NCBI GenBank assembly: GCA_045545595.1
Contig: JAZQBG010000045.1
Coordinates: 594 to 64,593 of the forward strand
Length of the DNA: 64,000 bases
Reading direction: 5' to 3'
From: Bacilli bacterium
GTDB taxonomy: Bacteria; Bacillota_I; Bacilli_A; RF39; UBA660
This document shows positions 54,358-54,423 of the stretch, piece by piece. Under the pieces are notes generated by a model, which was given only the letters and a program-made list of their open reading frames with translations, ran no database searches and was not told where the DNA came from. A program made the position numbers and the translations under genes. Numbering within the stretch: position 1 is the stretch's first letter; each line of letters starts with the position of its first letter.

Positions 54358-54423
54358 AATTTTATTTATTTATTTATTTATTTATTTATTTATTTATTTA
54401 TTTATTTATTTATTTATTTATTA
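54358..54423. repeat. (TTTA)n tetranucleotide microsatellite, about 15-16 perfect copies
   Basis: Perfect tttatttattta... tract 54361-54420 with partial units on both sides. Spans the stop codon of the sigH-like gene and abuts a candidate -35 (TTGACT, plus 54349-54354) for secE. Confidence 0.9.

Follow-up and report, generated by a model that had tools for sequence, protein, structure and literature searches.

A perfect (TAAA)n microsatellite, probably a young expansion, between a sigH-like gene and the conserved secE-nusG promoter of an uncultured member of the Bacilli

Introduction

Simple sequence repeats (SSRs) of some bacterial promoters, such as the (TA)n repeats of Haemophilus hifA/B and the homopolymers of Neisseria porA/opc, lie between the -35 and -10 hexamers and alter the spacing between them. 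UP elements, such as that of E. coli rrnB P1, are about 20 bp long and position-specific, and lie upstream of strong sigma-70/sigma-A promoters. At nadA of Neisseria meningitidis, a (TAAA)n tract of 4-13 units is located upstream of the -35 hexamer, in neither the spacer nor an ORF; it is prone to slippage, its AT-rich flanks make UP-like contacts with the alpha subunit, and both its length variation and the effect of that variation on expression are documented (Metruccio et al. 2009, PMC2791445). For this effect, NadR operators must flank the tract on either side and an IHF site must lie at its distal border; the genome is rich in SSRs, and the product of nadA is a surface adhesin (PMC2791445). 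In Mycoplasma gallisepticum, a trinucleotide (GAA)n tract with conserved flanks stands ~40 nt upstream of the start in the vlhA multigene family of surface lipoproteins, where the on-state requires exactly 12 units and the arrangement is conserved across strains (PMC6258824). Prokaryotes are on average depleted in short tandem repeats (PMC12699852), and the tetranucleotide tracts of E. coli K-12 reach a maximum of four units (PMC7015867); long tetranucleotide tracts are rare in bacteria, yet they are a known kind of feature.

Here we analyze a tract of the nadA tetranucleotide in a 64-kb stretch of DNA from an uncultured member of the Bacilli (the window, meaning the whole stretch of 64,000 nucleotides). 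The tract shares with nadA its unit, a comparable length (15 units), its AT-rich surroundings and its position upstream of a -35 hexamer. It differs from nadA in that its distal flank is sigH coding sequence, its target is the essential secE-nusG-rplK operon, the DNA sampled holds no other long SSR, and any length variation or effect on expression would be putative. A nadA-like mechanism lacks support here, because it requires regulator sites in the distal flank and none is evident. As in vlhA, the repeat is found ~40 nt upstream of a start, with conserved flanks, in a genome related to that low-GC lineage; unlike vlhA, it occupies a single locus, precedes a housekeeping operon and is absent from all relatives. 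Its likeness to UP elements consists of an A+T-only upstream region with a proximal A-tract, at which alpha-CTD binding would be putative, but a 62-nt tract with 4-bp periodicity is far longer than the alpha-CTD footprint, and such contacts do not depend on its length. With hifA/B and porA/opc it shares the association of an SSR with a promoter (partly PMC2791445, introduction), but the 17-nt spacer at our locus is repeat-free and invariant. An IMG/VR scan for (TAAA)10 or longer returned >120 viral contigs (L174-L253), including many giant-virus MAGs (GVMAG) and, in some cases, tracts of 120 nt, so long TAAA tracts recur in very AT-rich genomes; these matches bear little direct relevance to the tract described here.

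Results

The window has a GC content of 28%. Tandem Repeats Finder reports at 54361-54422 a repeat of period 4 with 15.5 copies, 100% matches, no indels and a score of 124. The tract is 62 nt long and reads AA(TAAA)15A on the minus strand, in the context ...AAG TAT AAT AAA TAA ATAAAT...TAAA A TTAA TTGACT. A first-pass annotation of the window had singled out a perfect tetranucleotide microsatellite at this site, and the raw sequence, the 15.5 perfect copies and comparison with shuffled sequences (below) bear it out as real and exceptional; the ends given then, 54358-54423, overshoot by 3 nt and 1 nt, and the distance to the TTGACT hexamer, put at 3 nt, is in fact 5 nt. A 16-nt (TTTA)4 probe allowing ≤1 mismatch matched 12 times in the 64-kb window, every time within the tract, against a mean of 0.33 matches per shuffle, and none of 100 shuffles reached 12. 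From base composition, ~1e-26 perfect period-4 tracts of 62 nt would be expected in the window. On both counts, chance is no explanation for the tract.

A full census of the window and of 820 kb of related loci turned up no other long SSR: the runner-up of period 4 measures 12 nt in the window, the longest in the related loci is 15 nt, and homopolymers extend to 9-10 nt at most across both. The sampled DNA therefore gives no sign of an SSR-based contingency system. Repeats of other kinds do occur in the window. At 16427-16683 we observed triplet-periodic repeats with periods of 9, 63 and 72 and units such as GGACCTACA and GGTGAAGCCGGA, typical of a putative gene for a collagen-like Gly-X-Y repeat protein, and an 11-nt near-palindromic unit, TGTAGCCTAC(G/A), is present in 2-3 copies at each of 17997-18017 and 19071-19102, ~1 kb apart.

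Nearest-neighbour energies make the tract region the lowest-stability duplex segment in the window at 40, 60, 80 and 100 bp alike. As a single strand, the tract has no predicted secondary structure, and readings based on a hairpin or cruciform were ruled out for want of any predicted fold. A hidden small ORF was also rejected, the sigma-factor gene being the sole ORF that crosses the tract. A replication origin or DNA-unwinding element at this site was rejected because the cumulative GC skew is monotonic across the window.

Nearly all genes around the tract are on the minus strand, where the order is cysS, a Zn-peptidase gene, mini-RNase III (mrnC), rlmB, the gene for a SigH-like sigma factor, secE, nusG, rplK, rplA, the L10 leader, rplJ and rplL. 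A plus-strand gene, dapA, separates the Zn-peptidase gene from mini-RNase III. The genes flanking the tract, namely secE, nusG, rplK and rplA downstream and the sigma factor upstream (Table 1), include no surface, host-interaction or restriction-modification determinant. The top NCBIfam matches of the sigma factor are SigH equivalogs, under their cut-offs (96 bits vs 208); the gene sits at the SigH position of the Bacillus subtilis cluster, and the synteny mrnC-rlmB-sigH-secE-nusG-rplK agrees. Rfam matches at gathering score in the window comprise tmRNA (24401-24761, minus strand, 142 bits) and the L10 leader (52036-52159, minus strand, 82 bits), with no others. At the exact-protein level, the window's SigH-like protein and NusG are singletons among 5.8 billion clusters, the nearest relative being 83% identical, and exact-protein look-ups with the SigH-like protein, NusG and P0001 found no conspecific contig. 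Among species representatives, the closest are MAGs with the labels Bacillota, Bacilli, Mollicutes or Erysipelotrichaceae, the best of them 71% identical.

Table 1 Features at the sigH-secE junction and their positions in the window
Feature	Position	Strand	Details
nusG	53548-54081	-	downstream of secE
secE with Shine-Dalgarno sequence	54096-54282	-	GAGGTG 54277-54282; ATG 54272; secE 54096-54272, 58 aa
Leader hairpin AAACAC-AACGAA-GUGUUU and U-tract UUUUUUAUUUU	54292-54318	-	hairpin 54301-54318; starts ~2 nt past the predicted start (~54320)
Alternative 8-bp helix GUUGUGUU / AACACAAC	54332-54339 / 54310-54317	-	-16/-10 region with 5' arm of the hairpin; alignment A3 columns 33-40 / 58-66
-10 hexamer TAATTT	54327-54332	-	17-nt spacer from -35; T, A and final T invariant across relatives
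TGTG '-16'/extended -10 motif	54334-54337	-	TG invariant across relatives
-35 hexamer TTGACT of the secE-nusG promoter	54350-54355	-	TTGAC invariant in 35/35 aligned relatives
G/C-free block holding the tract	54354-54425	.	72 nt; least stable duplex of the 64-kb window
Perfect (TAAA)15.5 microsatellite	54361-54422	-	written (TTTA)n on the plus strand; -41 to -102 relative to the predicted secE start
SigH-like sigma-70 family factor	54414-55013	-	199 aa; last two codons and TAA inside the tract

As first noted, the tract spans the stop codon of the sigma factor, whose identity as SigH-like rests on the below-cut-off equivalog matches together with synteny. The repeat takes in codons N198 and K199 (AAT AAA) of the 199-aa ORF together with its TAA stop (54414-54416), the protein ending ...NK-stop in the tract's first 9 nt, and the C-terminus ...KKYNK-stop is identical in relatives that have no tract. 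TAA recurs every 12 nt in all three minus-strand frames, in agreement with the earlier claim of a stop in every frame. Because the tract is perfect, AAT AAA TAA stays put after any whole-unit indel, and gain or loss of units leaves the sigma protein unaltered, again as proposed. With the stop in the first units and the 17-nt promoter spacer free of repeats, unit indels shift neither the reading frame nor the distance between the -35 and -10 hexamers. In one relative (L001 3001-3650, MAG SIG205, P0019), the SigH-like ORF extends 17 codons further (…KYNIYQNWLTFIDSCVNL) and passes through the -35 hexamer (TTG ACT TTT = L T F) into the secE promoter; an ORF that reads into the promoter in this manner shows how tightly gene end and promoter are packed.

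The secE-nusG promoter beside the tract was aligned across 35 diverse relatives, down to ~30% SigH identity. Its conserved form is TTGACW, 17 nt ending in TRTG, and TAnnnT, in which we take TRTG to be the Gram-positive '-16'/extended -10 motif; the -10 hexamer is TATTTT, TAATAT or TACAAT in other genomes. On the strength of this alignment, we predict a sigma-A-type promoter that drives secE-nusG-rplK from a start at ~54320, and the TTGACT that had been described as -35-like turns out to be a genuine, phylogenetically conserved -35 hexamer, its first five bases kept by every aligned relative. A simple promoter and terminator scan flagged neither this promoter nor the leader hairpin downstream of it. 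The consensus scan missed the promoter because TAATTT agrees with TATAAT at only 3 of 6 positions; the evidence for promoter and leader is comparative, not consensus-based. DNA upstream of the promoter is 100% A+T from -36 to -105, and the window shares with its close relatives a proximal A-tract, AATAAAATT, at -46 to -38. In 57 distinct relatives examined for upstream composition, A+T content is high upstream of -35 and peaks near -41, -50 and -60, a UP-like and helically phased pattern that the tract fits whatever its copy number. The distal flank of the tract is conserved sigH coding sequence, with no operator evident.

Between promoter and secE, relatives share a leader with a small hairpin ~8-12 nt after the -10 hexamer, in which AARCAC-N4-7-GUGUUU runs into U5-6AU3-4 and is followed by a Shine-Dalgarno sequence and secE. 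The promoter-leader unit as a whole occupies 54292-54355 (minus strand) in the window and is seen across L001-L173 (for instance L047 4340-4445 and L062 4340-4440). A regular expression for hairpin and U-tract, run over 818 kb, gave 77 sense-strand matches and a single antisense match, which substantiates the hairpin that the first-pass annotation had placed near secE. Nearly all sense matches precede the secE start by ~40-58 nt; greater distances are explained by N-terminally extended SecE, not by rpmG. In the alignment, the hairpin is 98.6% paired, with no double compensatory changes, and every change turns an A-U pair into G-U through the 5' arm, consistent with an RNA on the sense strand. 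By eye, the leader stem of one relative (L003) is ACGC/GCGU. The stem in the window has only 6 bp, two of them G-C, followed by U6AU4; the terminator scan flags none, and single-sequence folding of the leader is no better than that of shuffles (z-scores -0.4 and -0.7). Rfam returned nothing plausible in 54050-54500 at E ≤ 10.

A literature check found no description of a NusG autoregulatory leader upstream of secE, and a study of NusG-dependent termination in B. subtilis mentions neither a secE/nusG leader nor NusG autoregulation (PMC8060035). The secE leader does resemble the weak intrinsic terminators of B. subtilis that are stimulated by NusG and NusA, with their TTNTTT pauses (PMC8060035, PMC9963633): it likewise combines a weak 6-bp hairpin with a U-tract that contains TTNTTT, and it precedes the operon that encodes NusG. 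This comparison covers the leader and not the tract. We regard the leader as a candidate attenuator, possibly NusG-sensing, or a candidate 5' mRNA stabilizer; termination or pausing at it is something we purely infer.

The 5' arm of the leader hairpin can also pair with the -16/-10 region of the promoter (Table 1). This alternative helix is 79% paired in the alignment, compared with 28-56% in slid controls, and one of its pairs covaries (UA:14, CG:10, UG:4). None of 500 shuffles reaches its covariation score, a figure that shared ancestry can inflate. In L002, a compensatory C...G swap is found in the same helix. With one of its strands inside the promoter, the helix can arise only in read-through RNA from sigH. 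Transcripts that read through and those started at the promoter would then differ in their fold, which points to an antiterminator-like switch between the two.

For the origin of the tract, the informative genomes are the close relatives (L001, L161-L169, L171-L173), whose SigH is 71-83% identical to that of the window. One further relative (L170; P0031, 91% over half the protein) stops inside sigH and offers no intergenic sequence for comparison, and among the matches listed from a metagenome scan with the SigH alignment all are distant, at ≤42% identity. The tract is absent from every one of the close relatives, in which ...AATAAATAATAAAATTCATTGACT constitutes a proto-repeat. The junction in these genomes reads ...AAA TAC/TAT AAT AAA TAA TAAAATTCA TTGACT, or a variant of it, and the proto-repeat, AA-TAAA-TAA-TAAAA, is one A short of (TAAA)3. 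BLAST alignments between the window and its relatives break exactly at the tract, and the sigH-secE spacer measures 141 nt in the window vs 88-93 nt in the close relatives. The bases between the sigH stop and the -35 hexamer are the sole variable part of an otherwise highly conserved region and are therefore weakly constrained. As close relatives without the tract carry the proto-repeat, the tract has the signature of a recent, lineage-specific expansion, presumably by slippage, and it is found only in this genome.

Nucleotide identity to the close relatives also changes at the tract, from 81-90% upstream of it to 94-97% downstream; in L161, L167, L168, L171-L173 and L001, the two levels apply to 54409-55736 and 53412-54390, respectively. 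This step probably reflects different constraint on the sigH side and on the secE-nusG-rplK side, and a recombination boundary at the tract is a possible source of it. In a large sister clade (L047 3651-4772; L045, L048, L052, L057, L059-L062 and others), an unknown ORF of 231 aa lies between sigH and secE, and SecE itself (L047 and others) has a Lys-rich N-terminal extension of ~50 aa, for a total of 109 aa.

Discussion

We lean towards reading the tract as a young expansion, near-neutral though probably unstable, in the lone gap without constraint that separates a gene end from a conserved promoter. Replication slippage would have started from the proto-repeat in the ~15-nt gap between the sigH stop and the -35 hexamer; the gain of one A would have produced (TAAA)3, to which ~12 further units would then have been added. 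The tract would be tolerated because nothing constrained is changed: the sigma-factor end, the core promoter and the proximal A-tract all stay as they were, and an AT-rich upstream promoter face is swapped for DNA that is 100% A+T. By analogy with measured tetranucleotide tracts, 15 perfect units should be mutationally unstable. The nadA (TAAA)n tract switches at about 4e-4 with 4-13 units (PMC2791445), a rate that supports the instability expected at 15. Gains and losses of units would merely slide the sigH coding end relative to the promoter and, because nothing else moves, changes in copy number should leave the phenotype nearly unaffected; having the tract at all would at most mildly alter promoter strength or local DNA melting. 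The perfect purity of all 62 nt and their place against the promoter of an essential operon could nevertheless reflect selection and not mere youth, and the most easily melted DNA of the window could influence the adjacent promoter under superhelical stress.

A rival reading, which we consider doubtful, makes the tract a functional, contingency-type rheostat in which copy number tunes secE-nusG-rplKA transcription. Such a rheostat could operate through nadA-style spacing of a distal protein site, through a supercoiling-sensitive melted block or through an extended UP-like tract. The nadA repeat, which matches the tract in unit and in position class (upstream of -35), sets its promoter at a low, medium or high state (PMC2791445), and the vlhA (GAA)n repeat lies at a similar ~40 nt upstream of the start in M. 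gallisepticum, a related low-GC lineage (PMC6258824). The tract is moreover the window's least stable duplex, and the conserved promoter that it adjoins has phased, AT-rich DNA upstream. However, 15 units keep the sequence from -1 to -102 invariant in copy number, the far boundary aside, and because -1 to about -100 stays identical, a change in length alone cannot retune alpha-CTD contacts; the variable-length UP element of the first-pass annotation lacks support on this ground. Bending by A-tracts needs phasing with the 10.5-bp helical repeat. A 4-bp period is out of phase with that helix, so that, judging from these bending rules, planar curvature is not expected, and the curved-DNA role proposed alongside the UP element is likewise unsupported. 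The distal flank is sigH coding sequence without an evident operator, the target is a housekeeping operon rather than a surface or restriction-modification gene, and no other SSR of this kind occurs in the sampled DNA (window plus 820 kb). Being absent from every relative, the tract is not a conserved regulatory device. Distinctly unlikely, too, is the broader proposal of a hypermutable tract that modulates an essential housekeeping operon, and whose presence, and possibly length, alters the firing of the conserved secE-nusG-rplKA promoter or the fate of sigH read-through RNA and thereby creates cell-to-cell heterogeneity in SecE/NusG/L11 dosage within an uncultured lineage of Bacilli with a reduced genome. 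Such modulation could proceed by supercoiling-dependent melting of the 72-bp A+T block or by extended upstream contacts, or else, at the RNA level, by setting the promoter-embedded strand against the weak terminator-like hairpin, with its NusG-type TTNTTT, of this previously undescribed leader.

An effect confined to RNA seems to us very unlikely. It would arise from 53 nt of unstructured (UAAA)n in the mrnC-rlmB-sigH read-through transcript, between the sigH stop and the leader, which could serve as an RNase entry site, act as a spacer uncoupling sigH from secE, or alter the choice between alternative leader helices. Any read-through RNA must include the tract, as terminators are missing between sigH and the secE leader in every relative. 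No structure is predicted anywhere in the repeat, and the covarying helix that needs upstream RNA comes directly after it. Relatives function without the tract, however, and the alternative helix lies wholly downstream of it and does not pair with it. Harder still to credit is the idea that the tract, or its copy number, arose as an artefact when a metagenome-assembled genome was sequenced or assembled. The tract appears to come from a single NCBI contig, with a second copy found in no collection, the nearest relatives are all MAGs, and perfect repeats are difficult for short-read assemblers; yet it lies ~9.6 kb from the nearer window end and not at a contig end, it grows from a proto-repeat that relatives carry, and at 62 nt it is shorter than the usual reads and than large assembly k-mers. 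The two flanks continue exactly as they do in relatives, so neither a misjoin nor foreign sequence is involved. A hypermutable spacer left after loss of rpmG (L33) between sigH and secE, the last of the earlier suggestions, was rejected on the comparative data and retains practically no probability. In Bacillus subtilis, rpmGB lies between sigH and secE, and rpmG is missing from that position in the window. It is, however, found in the sigH-secE interval of no locus examined, including the tract-free close relatives with their spacers of 88-93 nt. Every relative with adjacent sigH and secE is without it, and the spacer in these genomes is 88-125 nt long, repeat-free and filled by the conserved promoter and leader; larger gaps hold the unknown 231-aa ORF or N-terminally extended SecE, not rpmG. 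With rpmG absent from all relatives and their spacers compact and free of repeats, its loss long predates the expansion.

Should the tract prove to vary and to tune secE-nusG-rplKA, repeat-driven bet-hedging would extend from surface and restriction genes to the core transcription and secretion machinery. As the near-neutral young expansion that we favor, it would be a clean natural example of the birth of a bacterial microsatellite, in which a stop-codon/A-tract proto-repeat occupied the sole few bases without constraint separating a gene end from a promoter and grew longer in a single lineage. The comparison on which this reading is built also validates a deeply conserved secE-nusG promoter and leader in uncultured Bacilli, and the secE leader may be worth a study of its own as a candidate NusG-feedback or mRNA-stabilizing element.
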